A program made the position numbers and the translations under genes. The notes beneath the pieces were generated by a model. That model was not told the origin of the DNA. It ran no database searches and saw only the letters and a program-made list of their open reading frames with translations. From an uncultured Candidatus Saccharibacteria bacterium (lineage in GTDB: Bacteria > Patescibacteriota > Minisyncoccia > Phycocordibacterales > Zambryskibacteraceae), in contig CAZDXF010000001.1 in NCBI GenBank assembly GCA_964509605.1, positions 8,276-72,275 on the forward strand: DNA of 64,000 nucleotides, given 5' to 3'. Positions within the stretch are counted from its first letter, which is position 1, and the number at the start of each line of letters is the position of its first letter. Shown one piece after another: positions 7,696 through 60,719 of the stretch.

Positions 7696-7944
7696 TATAT
7701 GCATTTTTTTGTTTATGTATTGAAAAGTGAAAAGGATAACAATTTTTATATTGGCTGTACTTCAAATTTGCAAAATAGACTTAAACAGCATTTATCTGGT
7801 AAAGTTCTTTCTACAAAAGCTCGATTACCATTAAAGCTTATATACAAAGAGTTTTTTATTGACAAGTATGAAGCGTATAGAGTTGAAAGATTTTATAAGA
7901 CCGCCGTTGGTAAGCGAGTTTTGAGAAAGAAGATAAACAAATAA
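7687..7944 (+). CDS. GIY-YIG nuclease, YhbQ/UPF0213-like (about 81-85 aa)
   Basis: FFVYVLKSEKDNNFYIGCTSNLQNRLKQHLSGK and YRVERFYKTAVGKR match the YhbQ-type GIY-YIG (URI) domain. An alternative ATG lies at 7699. Confidence 0.7.
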   Translation: MVGYMHFFVYVLKSEKDNNFYIGCTSNLQNRLKQHLSGKVLSTKARLPLKLIYKEFFIDKYEAYRVERFYKTAVGKRVLRKKINK

Positions 7945-7947
7945 AAT

Positions 7948-8018
7948 TGCCGGTTCGTCTAATGGTAGGACACCTCCCTTTGGAGGAGGCTATTGGGGTT
8001 CGAGTCCCTGACCGGCAG
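7948..8018 (+). tRNA. tRNA-Gln (anticodon TTG)
   Basis: Acceptor TGCCGGT/ACCGGCA with a U1:A72 pair and G73. Anticodon arm CCTCC-CTTTGGA-GGAGG. T-loop TTCGAGT. CCA is not encoded. Confidence 0.8.
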
Positions 8019-8194
8019 CAATGCAAAGTTTTGATAGCTTTTGCTATCTAAAACTTGCATACTGCCAGGTAGGAAGTGAATTTCTTCACTTCCGTTAGGA
8101 ACTCGAAAAGCGCAGTTATGTTTTGCTAACAAGCAAAACAGACGAGCTAGGGTCGTGAAATTTTGCGAGCGACGGCGAGCAAAATATTCCTGAC

Positions 8195-8213
8195 CGAGTC
8201 CCTGACCGGCAGC
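8195..8213 (+). repeat. 19-nt direct repeat of the tRNA-Gln 3' end (att-like remnant)
   Basis: CGAGTCCCTGACCGGCAGC at 8195-8213 is identical to 8001-8019. Confidence 0.7.
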
Positions 8214-12645: not shown

Positions 12646-12726
12646 GCTTCTCTCACCACTTTCCGCACCCCCATCTTTTCACTATCGCCTCCACCTCTTC
12701 TTCTCCCACCCCATTAAACTATTCCC

Positions 12727-12750
12727 ATATTCTCAAGAATACCAGAATAG
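12727..12750 (+). repeat. degenerate copy of the ATTCTCAAGAAT palindromic element overlapping the arsR promoter
   Basis: TATTCTCAAGAATACCAGAATAG, followed by TATAAT at 12752-12757. Confidence 0.5.
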
Positions 12751-13092: not shown

Positions 13093-13136
13093 CCAAAACT
13101 ACTCTGGTATTCTCAAGAATACCAGAGTAGTTTTGG
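13093..13136 (+). repeat. 44-bp near-perfect palindrome (21-bp arms, core ATTCTCAAGAAT); likely ArsR operator / repeat family member
   Basis: CCAAAACTACTCTGGTATTCT-CA-AGAATACCAGAGTAGTTTTGG. Confidence 0.7.
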
Positions 13137-20866: not shown

Positions 20867-20896
20867 CATTCCAACATTCTTGAGAATGTTGGAATG
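20867..20896 (+). repeat. palindromic element CATTCCAACATTCT-TG-AGAATGTTGGAATG (repeat family with 46630-46669)
   Basis: Perfect 14-bp arms; lies in a convergent intergenic region. Confidence 0.7.
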
Positions 20897-42948: not shown

Positions 42949-43024
42949 TGGTGGACCCTACCGGATTCGAACCGGTGACCTCCTCATTGCAAATGAGGCG
43001 CTCTACCAACTAAGCTAAGGGCCC
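42949..43024 (-). tRNA. tRNA-Ala (anticodon TGC), CCA encoded
   Basis: GGGCCCT acceptor with G3:U70, anticodon loop TTTGCAA, T-loop TTCGAAT, 3' ACCA. Confidence 0.85.
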
Positions 43025-43094
43025 GTTTTTTTAAAGTTAAAATTTTAACTAACTAGCAACATGTCGCTCGGACCCTGTCCGCCCATCTGGCGGA

Positions 43095-43114
43095 AACTAA
43101 GCTAAGGGCCCGTT
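43095..43114 (-). repeat. 20-nt duplicate of the tRNA-Ala(TGC) 5' end
   Basis: AACTAAGCTAAGGGCCCGTT is identical to 43008-43027. It is followed by the hairpin CCGCC-agatg-GGCGG. Confidence 0.65.
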
Positions 43115-43234
43115 AAAAAAAAGTTTTTAGCTAATAGCTTATAGCTGTCAGTTAAAAACAACAGAGGAAAGAATACATTAAATGTTTGGCAAATTCAAAT
43201 TGTTTTGTGATATATTTTCTTTCTATACACAACA

Positions 43235-46629: not shown

Positions 46630-46669
46630 CACGACATTCTAACATTCTCAAGAATGTTAGAATGTCGTG
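46630..46669 (+). repeat. 40-bp perfect palindrome CACGACATTCTAACATTCT-CA-AGAATGTTAGAATGTCGTG
   Basis: Same family as 20867-20896 and 13093-13136. Confidence 0.7.
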
Positions 46670-46694: not shown

Positions 46695-47276
46695 ATGAAA
46701 AAGAAGAAAATATTTATATTGCTGGGGCACCCAGATTCAGACAGTTTTAATGGTACTTTGGTGAGTGAATATGAAAAAGGCGCTCTTGAAGCGGGACATG
46801 AAGTGAGAAGGATGAATCTTCAAGATATGAATTTTGATCCCGTACTTCATAAAGGATACAAGGAGATTCAGGAGCTTGAGCCAGACCTCGTATCTTTTCA
46901 AGATAATTTAAAGTGGTGTGATCATTTCGCTGTGTTTTATCCCACTTGGTTTTCTACAATGCCCGCAAAACTAAAAGGTGTTTTTGATAGAGCTTGGCTT
47001 CCGGGATTTGCATATCATTTCAGAGAAAATGGGTTGGGTTGGGAAAGAAGACTGAAGGGTAGATCTGCTTCAATGTTTGTAACATCTGACACAGTTCCTA
47101 TAATTTTGAGACTAGTGTTTGGAGACACTACAAATGAAATGAGAAAAGGAATTCTCTGGTTTGCTGGGTTTTCTCCGATTTATCTTCACAAATTTGGCTA
47201 TTTGAAACATTTTGGCGTCTGGAGAAGACAAAGAATTCAGAGAAAGGTTTTTAGACTCGGAAAGAGGGCAAAATAA
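46695..47276 (+). CDS. flavodoxin-like fold NAD(P)H-dependent oxidoreductase
   Basis: KKIFILLGHPDSDSFNGTL N-terminal motif of the Flavodoxin_2/NQO1-like family. Confidence 0.6.
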   Translation: MKKKKIFILLGHPDSDSFNGTLVSEYEKGALEAGHEVRRMNLQDMNFDPVLHKGYKEIQELEPDLVSFQDNLKWCDHFAVFYPTWFSTMPAKLKGVFDRAWLPGFAYHFRENGLGWERRLKGRSASMFVTSDTVPIILRLVFGDTTNEMRKGILWFAGFSPIYLHKFGYLKHFGVWRRQRIQRKVFRLGKRAK

Positions 47277-47317
47277 CTTTGCTTTACGAAAAAATTTAAA
47301 CTGATAGCATCTATTCC

Positions 47318-47461
47318 ATGAAATTATCTATTGGAATAGTGGGTTTACCGAATGTTGGCCCCAAACAAAACAGTGGAATCAAGCACTTCGTGCCATAGTG
47401 AGTTCCTGTTTTGTTCGGGGCGAGTAGTGGTGATATAGTTTTTGTTCACATCGCATTTAAT
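47318..47461 (+). repeat. 42-nt duplication of the ychF 5' end plus 102-nt hairpin insert
   Basis: 47318-47359 equals 47462-47503 with one mismatch. The insert carries the inverted repeat CCCAAACAAAACAG...CTGTTTTGTTCGGGG. Confidence 0.7.
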
Positions 47462-48463
47462 ATGAAATTATCTATCGGAATAGTGGGTTTACCGAATGTT
47501 GGCAAATCAACGCTTTTTAATACATTAACTAAAAAATCTGTACCCGCAGAAAACTATCCGTTTTGTACGATTGATCCATCTGTAGGCATTGTTCCTGTAC
47601 CTGATGAGAGACTTAATAAACTTTCAGAATTTAGTAAATCAGAGGAAACAATACCCGCTGTGGTTGAGTTTGTTGATATTGCAGGTCTTGTAAAAGGTGC
47701 TTCTCTTGGAGAAGGTTTGGGAAATAAATTTTTGAGCAATATTCGTGAAGTAGACGCAATTGCACAAATGGTCAGAACTTTCAAAGATGATGATGTTGTG
47801 CATGTCCATGGAAAAGTTGATCCAATTTCTGATATTGAAGTAATAAATTTGGAGTTGATTTTGGCGGATACAGAGACGGTCTCAAAAAGACTCGGAAGTT
47901 TGGTAAGAGATGTTAAAAGTGGAAATAAAGAAGCAATGGCCGAAGAGATGGCTCTCAAAAAAGTGGAGATTACTTTAAAAAACGGAAATTTAGCAAATAA
48001 AACCGAGCTAAATGAGGAAGAAAAAAAGATTGTGAAAGGTTTGCACTTGCTCACGATGAAACCAATTCTTTACATTTTGAATGTTTCAGAGGCGAGTGAA
48101 AATGTGGCAGATGAAATTGCTTCAAAAATCCCCGGTAAATCTGTAAAAGTAGATCCTGTTTTTGGAAATGGTTTGGATGATCTAATAAAAGCGAGTTATG
48201 AATTGCTTGGTTTAGAAACTTTTTTTACAACAGGAGAAAAAGAAACACGAGCTTGGACAATAGAAAAAGGTTCTACAGCTCCAATTGCTGGCACCGCCAT
48301 TCACACAGATTTTAGAGATAAGTTTATAAGGGCAGATGTTATAGCTTGGGATAAGCTTTTAGAAGCCGGATCTTATGCAAATGCTAGAGAAAAAGGGTGG
48401 GTGAGAACTGAAGGCAAGGAATATATTGTCAAAGATGGCGATGTCGTAGAGTTTAAAATTTAA
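47462..48463 (+). CDS. ychF: ribosome-binding ATPase YchF
   Basis: GIVGLPNVGKSTLFN, a TGS domain, and C-terminal GDVVEFKI. Confidence 0.9.
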   Translation: MKLSIGIVGLPNVGKSTLFNTLTKKSVPAENYPFCTIDPSVGIVPVPDERLNKLSEFSKSEETIPAVVEFVDIAGLVKGASLGEGLGNKFLSNIREVDAIAQMVRTFKDDDVVHVHGKVDPISDIEVINLELILADTETVSKRLGSLVRDVKSGNKEAMAEEMALKKVEITLKNGNLANKTELNEEEKKIVKGLHLLTMKPILYILNVSEASENVADEIASKIPGKSVKVDPVFGNGLDDLIKASYELLGLETFFTTGEKETRAWTIEKGSTAPIAGTAIHTDFRDKFIRADVIAWDKLLEAGSYANAREKGWVRTEGKEYIVKDGDVVEFKI

Positions 48464-58768: not shown

Positions 58769-59361
58769 TGACAAAATTTGAAGAAATGAAAAAGATTCGG
58801 GACGAGCTCCTTGTTGGAGAAAATCTGCCTCTTTTTAAGTTTAGAAAAGAAAATGGTTATTTACCTGTAGTTGGAGAGGGAAGTCATGATGCCAAAATAC
58901 TTTTTGTTGGAGAAGCCCCTGGAGAGAATGAAGCGAAAACAGGAAAGCCTTTTTGTGGAAGAGCGGGTAAAATTTTAGATGTTTTGCTTAATCACATAGG
59001 TTTAAAAAGAGAAGAAGTTTACATAACTAATATTGTGAAAGACCGACCTCCAAAAAACAGAGATCCGATGCCTGACGAAATTTATGCCTACGCCCCATTT
59101 TTAAAAAAGCAAATAGAAATTATTCAGCCTAAAGTGGTCGCTACGCTTGGAAGACACTCTATGACTCACATTCTCAAGTTTTTTGCTTTAAAAGACAAAA
59201 TAGAGCCGATAAGCAAAATGCACGGAAGACTCCTTGAAGCCGATTCAGAGTTTTGTAAAGTCAAAATAGCAACACTTTACCATCCGGCTGTAGCCGTATA
59301 TGATCAAAGTAAACTGAGTGAACTTAAGAAGGATTTTGAAGTCATAAAAGCTTTTATTTAA
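58765..59361 (+). CDS. uracil-DNA glycosylase family 4
   Basis: GEGSHDAKILFVGEAPGENEAKTGKPFCGRAGKILD. Confidence 0.85.
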   Translation: MMTKFEEMKKIRDELLVGENLPLFKFRKENGYLPVVGEGSHDAKILFVGEAPGENEAKTGKPFCGRAGKILDVLLNHIGLKREEVYITNIVKDRPPKNRDPMPDEIYAYAPFLKKQIEIIQPKVVATLGRHSMTHILKFFALKDKIEPISKMHGRLLEADSEFCKVKIATLYHPAVAVYDQSKLSELKKDFEVIKAFI

Positions 59362-59372
59362 TATGGATTTTA
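59299..59372 (+). repeat. left copy of ~74-nt direct repeat (UDG 3' end + ATGGATTTTAAT) flanking the inserted peptidase gene
   Basis: 59299-59340 equals 60644-60685 with 1 mismatch, and AATGGATTTTAAT is shared. Confidence 0.7.
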
Positions 59373-59382
59373 ATTATTTATT

Positions 59383-60621
59383 ATGAAAAAAGACTATACC
59401 CCTAAAAAAAGAATACTTGAAAATTATGCAAAAGTGCTGGTAAATTTTGCTTTGGGTGGAGGATCTAGAATTGGAGGGAAAGGTATAAAAAGAGGGGATG
59501 TTGTACTGGTTTCAGCTCCAGAAGTTGCAAGACCCCTTTACGCAGAAATTCTTAGAGCAATTTGGAAATCCGGTGGACATGTTATTGGGCGTTATGCTCC
59601 AAGCAACGATGCTAGTTTTAAGATGGATAGAGAATTTTATATTCTAGCATCGAAGGAACAACTTAATTATTTTCCAGAAAAATTAATGCGCGGACAAATT
59701 GATGAAATTGACCACTCAATCTTTATTATTGCGGAAACAGATAAAGAATCCATGAAAGGTATCGATCCGAAAAAACTAATGACCAAAGGTGAAGCATGGA
59801 AACCATATATGAACTGGAGAAATGAAAAAGAAAGCAGAGGAAATTTTACTTGGACACTTGGGTTGTATGGAACAAAAGCAATGGCAAAAGAAGCAAGAAT
59901 GACAGAAAAAGAATATTGGGAACAGATCATCAAGGCTTGCTTTTTGGACAAAAAAAATCCTATCAAAGAATGGAGAAAAATTTCAGAACAAATAGAAATA
60001 TACAGAAAAAAACTTAACGCACTAAAAATTGAAAAGATTCATGTTGTTGGCCCCGATGCAGATTTGTGGTTAAAAATTGGAGAAAAAAGAGCGTGGAACG
60101 GAGGTACGGGACGAAACATACCAAGTTTTGAATTATTCACTTCACCAGATTGGCGTGGAACAAATGGTTGGATACGTTTCAATCAACCGTTGTATCGTTA
60201 CGGCAATCTCATAGAAGGGATTCAGTTGTGGTTTAAGAATGGAAGAGTTATAAAAAGCAAAGCGAGAAAAAATGAAAAAGTTTTAAAAGCAATGATATCA
60301 ACTAAAAATGCTGACAAAGTTGGAGAGTATTCACTCACAGACAAAAGATTCTCTAGAATTACAAAATTTATGGCAGAAACCCTATATGATGAAAATGTGG
60401 GAGGACCACATGGAAATACTCACATAGCTTTGGGAAGCTCTTATCATGACTGTTTCTCTGGAAATCCCAGCAAGATATCGAAAAAAGAATGGGAAAGATT
60501 AGGATACAACGATTCTTCTGTGCACACAGACATTATATCGACAACCCCCAGGACTGTTACGGCTTATTTACCTAAAGGAAAAATAAAAGTGATTTACAAG
60601 AATGGTCAGTTTACATTATAG
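59383..60621 (+). CDS. aminopeptidase, M29 (AmpS/PepS-like) family
   Basis: 412 aa; the N-terminal and central patterns fit the thermophilic metalloprotease M29 family. Confidence 0.7.
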   Translation: MKKDYTPKKRILENYAKVLVNFALGGGSRIGGKGIKRGDVVLVSAPEVARPLYAEILRAIWKSGGHVIGRYAPSNDASFKMDREFYILASKEQLNYFPEKLMRGQIDEIDHSIFIIAETDKESMKGIDPKKLMTKGEAWKPYMNWRNEKESRGNFTWTLGLYGTKAMAKEARMTEKEYWEQIIKACFLDKKNPIKEWRKISEQIEIYRKKLNALKIEKIHVVGPDADLWLKIGEKRAWNGGTGRNIPSFELFTSPDWRGTNGWIRFNQPLYRYGNLIEGIQLWFKNGRVIKSKARKNEKVLKAMISTKNADKVGEYSLTDKRFSRITKFMAETLYDENVGGPHGNTHIALGSSYHDCFSGNPSKISKKEWERLGYNDSSVHTDIISTTPRTVTAYLPKGKIKVIYKNGQFTL

Positions 60622-60643
60622 AAACACCGTTTTGCACATTAAT

Positions 60644-60719
60644 TATGATCAAAGTAAACTGAGTGAACTTAAGAATGATTTTGAAACTCTAAAAAATATT
60701 ACCTAAAATGGATTTTAAT
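60644..60719 (+). repeat. right copy of the ~74-nt direct repeat
   Basis: Duplicates the UDG 3' end and the mazG-like start. Confidence 0.7.

Follow-up and report, generated by a model that had tools for sequence, protein, structure and literature searches.

The start of ychF is duplicated in the stretch of DNA analysed in this study, 64,000 nt from an uncultured Candidatus Saccharibacteria bacterium (hereafter the window), and the two starts are separated by a 102-nt spacer carrying a long hairpin, a 16-mer and a conserved leader block. The duplication is real, and this cassette, namely the block together with a copy of the start, recurs at one and the same codon of the gene in no fewer than five distantly related Patescibacteria, the window included. 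We tentatively explain it as a start-replacement cassette which was inserted by recombination, may now serve as an insulated promoter and leader of ychF, and would be expanded and lost by recombination between its copies.

Duplicated start of ychF in the window

The features of the locus are listed below with their positions in the window.

47277..47317, + strand: A-type (original-type) upstream region of ychF, between the stop of a flavodoxin-like gene (46695-47276; Flavodoxin_2, Pfam) and the left copy; homologous to the DNA directly 5' of the single start in the relative L002
47318..47359, + strand: left copy (S_L), the displaced decoy start, ATG plus ychF codons 2-14; ends at the GGC before the P-loop lysine
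47318..47398, + strand: open reading frame (ORF) of the decoy, MKLSIGIVGLPNVGPKQNSGIKHFVP*, 26 codons plus TAG by translation, extending into the hairpin
47358..47421, no strand assigned: long imperfect hairpin, its geometry kept with compensatory changes in L089, L098, L105 and L016
47360..47461, + strand: cassette body, the 102-nt spacer, single copy in the window
47411..47439, + strand: weak sigma-70-like promoter candidate, proposed from the sequence
47416..47431, + strand: 16-mer CGGGGCGAGTAGTGGT, once in the window and invariant in every ychF-linked copy
47445..47455, + strand: conserved leader block TTCACATCGCA, identified by alignments, just 5' of the working start
47462..47503, + strand: right copy (S_R), which runs on into the gene as its working start; GGC is followed by AAA TCA, giving G-K-S of the P-loop
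47462..48463, + strand: ychF, 333 aa, with MMR_HSR1 and YchF-GTPase_C domains, by domain and homologue matches

The two 42-nt direct repeats (47318-47359 and 47462-47503) agree at 41/42 positions, with a T/C mismatch at position 15, and their starts lie 144 nt apart. Both open with ATG and encode MKLSIGIVGLPNVG. The left copy runs on as CCC AAA and terminates at the TAG at 47396-47398, and the right copy reads on into AAA TCA, the K-S of the P-loop, and so into full-length YchF. The original prediction, that the ATG and first 13 codons of ychF are repeated 144 bp upstream with one mismatch and that the upstream copy soon meets a stop, is therefore confirmed in both parts. Only the right copy is continuous with ychF, and the conserved block directly precedes it. 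In terms of the coding sequence, the insertion point lies after the GGC codon for the second glycine of GxxxxGK. Because it extends over 42 nt with a single mismatch, the repeat is not a chance match in 64 kb; among the 20 largest of 31 repeat families, the only other direct-repeat pair of at least 40 nt and more than 85% identity is a 76-nt pair near 59.3/60.6 kb.

The inverted-repeat arms are 16 nt long and complementary at 15/16 positions (47358-47373 and 47406-47421), and they constitute the outer part of the 64-nt hairpin. Terminal inverted repeats had been predicted for the 102-nt spacer. The left arm is indeed terminal, lying at the left end of the spacer and sharing with the left repeat its final 2 nt (GC); the right arm lies inside the spacer and stops 40 nt short of the right end. 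The basal helix GCCCC/GGGGC recruits the GC of codon 14, the tip carries a small GCAC/GTGC stem, and the first 6 nt of the 16-mer close the hairpin. Folding gives -30.1 kcal/mol (z = -3.6) as RNA and z = -3.1 as DNA; the two strands fold with similar energy and G·U pairs occur on both. The promoter candidate consists of TTGTTC (47411-47416) and TATAGT (47434-47439) separated by 17 nt, with a -35 match of 3/6, and the -10-like box is found at a constant offset past the 16-mer in all cassette copies. The leader block is shared by the window, L003, L089, L098 and L105, and L016 has the variant TTTTATCGCA. With Rfam 15, only tRNAs reach the gathering score in the window, the cassette region giving only noise at E up to 10, and nothing reaches the gathering score in six related loci.

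The arrangement is reproduced without a difference (361/361 nt, 100%) in the Logan assembly of run SRR15237813 (L001), which possibly derives from the same reads as the window, though through another assembler. More weight was given to the recurrence of this architecture, in diverged form, in unrelated samples and lineages. An assembly artefact, either a collapsed strain bubble or a mis-join, would fit the single mismatch between the copies if this reflected two strains. However, the second assembler yields an identical structure, and diverged versions of the architecture are found in five other contigs from other samples and projects; we consider the artefact excluded and the duplicated start confirmed.

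The same cassette in distant lineages

Carriers were found by a six-frame search of fetched loci for a second P-loop start and by one metagenome scan with a conserved motif. Besides the window, whose organism is placed in the Patescibacteria (Parcubacteria/Paceibacteria) by the source names of YchF homologues, they comprise the following.

L089, JGI 3300037483: YchF 75% identical to that of the window; decoy 42 nt; spacer 143 nt
L016, Candidatus Taylorbacteria metagenome-assembled genome: YchF 68%; decoy 42 nt; spacer 79 nt
L098, Ga0209541_10001221: YchF 70%; decoy 45 nt; spacer 83 nt
L105, Ga0209541_10002111: YchF 65%; decoy 39 nt; spacer 85 nt, two tandem units

The YchF proteins of the carriers are 63-75% identical to each other, as distant as carriers are from non-carriers. 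The decoy terminates at GGC in 6/6 copies from five lineages, and the duplication of 39-45 nt corresponds to ychF codons 1 to 13-15. The hairpin starts at the last decoy codon in all lineages, on the basal helix GCCCC/GGGGC (GCCUC in L016). It is followed by the 16-mer, an A/T-rich stretch with the -10-like box, (T)TTCACATCGCA, 3-9 nt and the real ATG, in this order. The insert, counted as block plus start copy, measures 121-185 nt across carriers.

The decoys differ in their surroundings. The upstream gene ends in a stop codon that overlaps the decoy ATG in L105 and precedes it by one base in L098. The decoy ORF ends in the loop of the hairpin (window and L089), past the 16-mer (L105 and L016) or overlapping the real ATG (L098). 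The glycine codons of decoy and real start are GGC/GGC in the window, L089 and L105, and GGC/GGA in L098 and L016; the codon after the decoy GGC is CCC or CTC, not a stop, and the gap between the glycine codons is 121-185 nt. A scan of genome contigs, from which L016 came, returned relatives only at ≤73% identity. A search for more carriers by N-terminally extended YchF gave short fragments only, without the GASSG..VHIAF signature.

Empty and half-filled sites in close relatives

The gene order around the locus is kept in relatives (PGI, ROK, small ORF, flavodoxin-like gene, variable stretch, ychF, one ORF, DUF5671, LeuRS). In L002, whose YchF is 90% identical to that of the window, there is no duplication, and the single start follows CTTTACGAAACATCAAAAACTGATAACATCTAGATTC, matching the DNA 5' of the left copy of the window. 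The upstream sequence common to both, CTTTACGAAA..AAACTGATA.CATCTA, is in L002 joined directly to the one start, and alignment of the window to L002 leaves a clean 144-nt gap, that is, an insertion in the window. What precedes the single start of L003 (YchF 88%) is a counterpart of the right half of the window's spacer, matching it at 93% over 58 nt, and neither the left hairpin arm nor a decoy start was found there. By comparison with L002 and L003, the window is thus resolved into original upstream sequence, codons 1-14, inserted block, a second set of codons 1-14, and the gene.

Comparison of the upstream region in relatives had been proposed as a check on the original prediction. The empty site of L002 bears out an insertion flanked by the duplicated ychF start, and at least four other Paceibacteria lineages have the site filled. 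The closer relatives without the cassette are L002, L004, L087, L128/L129 and L130, all with at least 80% YchF identity to the window.

Recombination between cassette copies

The tandem locus L105 has the order start_a, spacer, start_b, spacer, start_c and gene, and its two spacers differ at 1/85 nt. The middle start_b is a hybrid, with a 5' part equal to start_c, the real start, and a 3' part equal to start_a, the first decoy. Since a hybrid middle start is what an unequal crossover predicts, the array is taken as such a product and demonstrates, as read from its sequence, unequal recombination between cassette copies. The reciprocal product would be a single start on the original upstream sequence, which is the state of L002, and loss of the cassette may thereby be accounted for. 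In the window, the two copies agree in all derived synonymous states relative to L002 and L003, so that their duplication or homogenisation was recent.

Evidence of constraint on hairpin, spacer and decoy

All five versions of the hairpin fold, with energies from -21 to -44 kcal/mol and z from -3.4 to -5.6. In the hairpin alignment, 84.8% of cells pair, versus ≤53% in controls with slid partners. Three pairs show compensatory double changes (C-G/A-U, A-U/G-C and C-G/U-A), and the second helix of L016 has a wholly different sequence. Covariation among the six sequences is supportive of constraint on the hairpin, though not conclusive. The non-coding right half of the spacer is 89% identical between the window and L003 and 85% between the window and L089, against 56% and 41% at third codon positions of ychF. 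These comparisons show apparent purifying selection on both the hairpin and the right half.

The decoy is conserved in the manner of a coding sequence. In L089, L016, L098 and L105, decoy and real start are separated by synonymous changes in 30 codons and non-synonymous ones in 4; about half of the third positions differ, first and second positions are almost invariant, and the ATG is intact in 6/6 decoys. As a freely decaying relic would differ from this, the decoy was either a working start until recently or is kept by selection. Its 3' part is conserved at the nucleotide level as well. The Leu-Pro codons of the decoy are TTA-CCG in 4/5 carrier lineages versus 3/50 real starts (Fisher p = 0.0005), and the last codon is GGC in all decoys versus 19/50 real starts, GGC being required for the stem.

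The identity of the leader past the motif tracks YchF identity (r = 0.91 over 15 non-independent pairs), and synonymous sites of the working start beside the leader are no more conserved than those in the rest of ychF. This co-divergence, together with the ordinary synonymous conservation of the working start, argues against a recent long-range transfer of the block.

Copy number and search for a mobile parent

A covariance model, R1, was built from the six cassette copies, and further copies were sought in 369 kb of sequence made up of the window and 52 related loci. Searches with the hairpin (≤3 mismatches), the 16-mer (≤3 mismatches), spacer BLAST and R1 matched only ychF-linked copies. True copies score 80-103 bits with R1, the partial copy of L003 scores 50 bits, and the next best hits score ≤19 bits (E ≥ 0.5). 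The original prediction had looked to further copies of the 102-nt element and to independent assemblies for its support: the search returned no other copy in the window or the related loci, and the duplication is reproduced by a second assembly and by other organisms. Viral contigs were scanned with the decoy/hairpin junction and with the 16-mer in two registers, original and shifted, and all matches were chance ones in unrelated high-GC contexts. A viral or plasmid origin was also tried by BLAST against phage and plasmid records, with no match. Neither the L087 serine recombinase nor the Y1 transposases of L089 and L105 have a homologue in the window; tyrosine integrases were not searched for. 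GC skew is positive throughout the window, and no replication origin or terminus is indicated nearby.

Genes of large serine recombinases (Resolvase, Recombinase and zinc-ribbon domains) end within the first ~22 codons of ychF at L087/L090/L091, L088/L131 and L033 (coordinates 8377-10023 in L087/L090, 8359-10023 in L088/L131 and 85-240 in L033), and L010 has a similar arrangement by eye. An HTH_17 gene lies just 5' of the recombinase in L087/L090/L091 and L088/L131; the contig of L033 stops within the recombinase. At these loci the YchF start is three residues longer (MSxSxLSIG), and the called YchF is truncated to 321 aa (P0035 and P0111) though the DNA contains the full start MSYSALSIG. Lengths of 335-336 aa, with a start like MSYSALSIG, MSSSNLSIG or MSTSLSIG, are common among YchF proteins (e.g. 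P0056, P0067 and P0087), which suggests frequent serine-recombinase integration at ychF. Because the recombinase genes end inside ychF, the 5' end of the gene is a target of integrative elements in this group. For the left junction (attL) of these elements, no ychF-like fragment was found within 10 kb upstream in L090 or L131. Homology between the cassette block and the 3' ends of the serine recombinase genes (CAAGTATGTGGTTATATA versus CGAGTAGTGGTGATATA) was promising by eye and was rejected by alignment scores, with a mean local score of 13.8 against 13.1 ± 2.6 for 38 unrelated ychF upstream regions. The cassette is accordingly not a derivative of these elements.

IS200-like Y1 transposase genes are found just 3' of ychF and convergent with it in L089 (4109-4747, - strand) and L105 (1276-1944, + strand), that is, in 2/5 carriers versus 0/~45 non-carriers. 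The two transposases, of 212 and 222 aa, are 40% identical to each other. A Y1/REP-RAYT link to the cassette was considered and is not borne out: the palindromes flanking each gene are perfect, are its own and are unlike the cassette hairpin.

Proposed origin and function of the cassette

In the explanation that we tentatively favour, DNA recombination at the GGC codon would have placed the block and a fresh set of ychF codons 1-14 after the P-loop glycine. The left copy would keep the original upstream context and now form a short decoy ORF entering the hairpin. The right half, with the 16-mer, the -10-like box and TTCACATCGCA, would provide the promoter and 5' leader of ychF. The hairpin may insulate ychF from incoming transcription and translation, by acting as a road-block or by undergoing RNase III-type processing, a long perfect stem being a plausible RNase III substrate. 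The net outcome would be expression of ychF independent of the upstream DNA, and recombination between copies would remove the cassette again and give L002-like sites. As the decoy ATG of L105 and L098 stands at an operon-coupled position, the cassette seems to turn a coupled gene into one with its own start signals.

Several observations weigh against this explanation. A consensus promoter scan made no call in the cassette, where the hexamers are weak; its silence on TTGTTC/TATAGT is accounted for by a -35 that matches at only 3/6. The terminator scan found no terminator-like site in 47150-47600, and the hairpin, followed by GAGTAGTGGT, is not a canonical terminator because it lacks a U-tract 3' of the stem. 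The insert has no ORF beyond the decoy, and no recombinase or donor was identified for it. An insulator leaves unexplained both the coding-type constraint on the decoy and the nucleotide-level conservation of its final 15 nt. The distribution is patchy, so that a useful leader would need frequent loss. Because the coding constraint and the patchy distribution are not explained, our confidence in the start-replacement cassette stays a little short of even.

The main rival, which we find doubtful yet worth serious attention, is a non-autonomous att-flanked mini-element mobilised in trans, a stub in the manner of a cis-mobilisable element (CIME). Served by a site-specific recombinase from elsewhere, a small circle composed of hairpin, 16-mer, leader and a set of ychF codons 1-14 would integrate where ychF encodes its P-loop. 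The 42-nt copies would then correspond to attL and attR, the hairpin and the 16-mer would act as signals for recombination, and each copy would be a fairly recent insertion. Direct repeats from the target gene are indeed found at both ends with the gene left intact, as in an att-flanked element, and the patchy spread with empty sites in close relatives is what such an element would give. That both copies are intact everywhere and differ mostly synonymously fits a displaced host start beside a start that evolved on the element, and the nucleotide-level conservation of the 3' part of the decoy looks element-borne, which would put the crossover inside the repeat. The tandem double unit of L105, the presence of L098 and L105 in one metagenome, and the serine recombinases that target the ychF 5' end in relatives also speak for it. 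However, none of the copies has a linked recombinase, the 3' ends of the serine recombinase genes show no homology to the block, and no copy was found at other sites or in viral, phage and plasmid collections. The divergence of the cassette in step with ychF and the ordinary synonymous conservation of the working start argue against recent transfer between lineages, and a circle of 121-185 bp is very small for synapsis.

A functional decoy ORF is the second rival and in our judgement an unlikely one. It would control ychF translation by stalling or hairpin unwinding, by reinitiation, or by a hop between the glycine codons. The decoy would then be a working part of a new kind of cis-regulatory leader kept by selection across Paceibacteria, a proposal to which we likewise give little weight; it could act through translation-coupled control, through RNase III-type processing into a non-stop decoy message, or through a ribosomal hop. 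The near-invariant first and second codon positions, the ATG intact in every decoy, the onset of the hairpin exactly at the last decoy codon in all lineages and the divergence of the cassette in step with ychF are in its favour. Since YchF is a ribosome-associated ATPase, translational feedback through the decoy is conceivable. On the other hand, the decoy ORF ends at differing places among lineages, and L003 retains the 16-mer and leader without decoy or left arm. For a hop, a stop directly behind the would-be take-off codon is missing, take-off at GGC would be followed by landing at GGA in L098 and L016, and the 121-185 nt gap far exceeds known bypasses. The real start requires no such mechanism.

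The remaining alternatives are disfavoured. A neutral scar, in which DNA of a relative was anchored by homology in ychF, joined illegitimately at codon 14 and is now slowly decaying, is improbable. Its geometry fits, with recipient upstream sequence and codons 1-14 followed by donor upstream sequence and donor start; the junction falls at the G/C-rich microhomology GGC|CCC, and three further gene-end duplications occur within the same 64 kb. It does not agree with the invariant 16-mer, the compensated hairpin and the intact decoy frame, which persist despite near-saturated third positions of ychF, and to place this junction identically in five lineages would take a single old event with selection or else a site-specific process. 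The original prediction of a payload like a miniature inverted-repeat transposable element (MITE), that is, a small transposon with terminal inverted repeats and a target duplication, is very improbable and already refuted for the sequence analysed: its size of about 100 nt, strong hairpin and flanking direct repeat are matched, but the element is single-copy with a right arm 40 nt from the right end and hence no inverted repeats at both ends, no transposase is linked to it, the Y1 genes of L089 and L105 having other palindromes, and one gene segment of 39-45 nt with a fixed GGC end is duplicated every time, which a staggered transposase cut would not produce, a MITE being expected to duplicate 2-15 bp that vary by site.

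Other duplications and variable DNA around the locus

The insertion at ychF had been described as one of a style also seen at tRNA-Gln, tRNA-Ala and UDG-mazG. Gene-end duplications do exist at all three places, and their payloads share no sequence with the cassette. At tRNA-Gln, the last 19 nt (CGAGTCCCTGACCGGCAGC, 8001-8019) are repeated at 8195-8213 beyond a 175-nt spacer rich in small hairpins, and an ORF with a GIY-YIG nuclease domain (7723-7944) stops 3 nt before the tRNA. At tRNA-Ala(TGC), on the - strand (window 43008-43125), the first 17 nt plus 14 nt upstream are duplicated 87 nt further upstream, giving a repeat of 31 nt with 84% identity and a 56-nt spacer that opens with the junction hairpin TCCGCC AGAT GGGCGGA (tRNA strand). 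This layout is the same as that at ychF, without sequence similarity. At 59299-60719, two copies of a 76-nt segment, 86% identical, bracket a 1.3-kb insert with a complete M29 aminopeptidase gene (59383-60621). The segment spans the 3' end and stop of UDG together with the initial 12 nt of mazG. The real UDG terminates in its left copy, and the real MazG starts in its right copy.

Near-perfect 28-nt palindromes of the ATTCYNNNATTCTCAAGAATNNNRGAAT type occupy four intergenic sites (12721-12748, 13101-13128, 20868-20895 and 46636-46663), one of them just 5' of the flavodoxin-like gene preceding ychF. The interval from this gene to ychF is a variable spot in close relatives. In L003 (1610-2935) it holds an insert of 1.3 kb that is richer in G+C and carries an ORF for a secreted protein besides two small ones; L004 has an NYN-domain gene (2414-2935) and L002 a small membrane ORF (2360-2600) in the same interval before ychF. 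A conserved structured non-coding stretch was also found between the two genes in L002 (2660-2960), L003 (1345-1610), L004 (1935-2190) and L089 (2540-2800). Its promoter is of the TTGACA..TATA type, its two ends pair over a long range, and it carries a terminator hairpin. Neither an Rfam match at gathering score nor a copy in the window was obtained for this stretch, a candidate unannotated small RNA.

Significance and comparison with known systems

Patescibacteria genomes are tiny, and we know of almost no cis-regulatory elements in them. The cassette offers a non-coding element that is compact, has sharp boundaries and is linked to a single gene, universally conserved and associated with translation. 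Should the cassette be a domesticated promoter and leader, a gene would have been freed from its operon by a 150-bp insertion without functional loss. If it is a trans-mobilised mini-element, it would be among the smallest gene-restoring integrative units and would imply an as yet unknown recombinase targeting the P-loop-coding sequence. The covariance model R1 provides a marker for surveying such genomes, and annotation at such sites calls for care, as gene callers extend or truncate ychF there (P0092, P0035 and P0111). For a cassette like this, gene-less, confined to one locus, 120-185 bp long, with a covarying hairpin, an invariant box and a decoy under constraint, and recurrent across a bacterial class, no description was found in the literature or in Rfam.

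Gene-end duplications at integration sites are well known. Elements that restore a gene end, at tRNA 3' ends or the dusA 5' end, share with the cassette a gene-end repeat with one displaced and one gene-keeping copy, as well as empty sites in relatives and tandem arrays. Unlike them, the cassette has no integrase found and no cargo genes, its insert is only 121-185 bp, and its payload recurs in distant lineages with an invariant 16-mer and a hairpin, diverging together with the gene. Cis-mobilisable elements (CIMEs) are att-flanked remnants of integrative conjugative elements in streptococci, kilobases in size and produced by random deletions of a known parent. They resemble the cassette in their attL-remnant-attR layout without recombination genes and in possible tandem arrangement; the cassette differs in having no known parent element and identical boundaries in all lineages. 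The Correia elements of Neisseria are promoter-carrying hairpin MITEs with many copies, inverted repeats at both ends and a TA target duplication. Like the cassette, they measure ~100-150 bp, contain a hairpin, lie 5' of genes and possibly supply a promoter, and the cassette has neither their many copies nor their inverted repeats at both ends nor a TA-only duplication.

Translational bypass is known from phage T4 gene 60 and the 'byps' of yeast mitochondria, with gaps of 27-55 nt. Bypass cassettes and the ychF cassette have in common an insert after a glycine codon, a hairpin from that codon, a matching glycine downstream and an origin in mobile DNA. The ychF cassette departs from them in its own start codon, which makes a hop needless, in its gap of 121-185 nt, in the lack of a stop after the take-off codon and in the mismatch of take-off and landing codons in two lineages. 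Attenuators with an upstream ORF likewise have a short ORF and then a hairpin 5' of the regulated gene; in the cassette, however, the leader peptide copies the N-terminus of the gene itself, and neither a U-tract nor an alternative pairing was identified.

Mobile DNA has also been described at ychF in Streptococcus pneumoniae, where a defective prophage lies at the ychF promoter with its integrase beside the gene and integration alters the ychF -35 box (PMC6375853); the attB next to ychF is listed in PMC8637289. This attB is a 14-bp promoter site outside the coding region, the start region is not duplicated there, and the insert is a full prophage remnant with integrase. The two cases are thus analogous and do not use the same site, and what they share is mobile DNA at the 5' side of ychF and a remodelled promoter.

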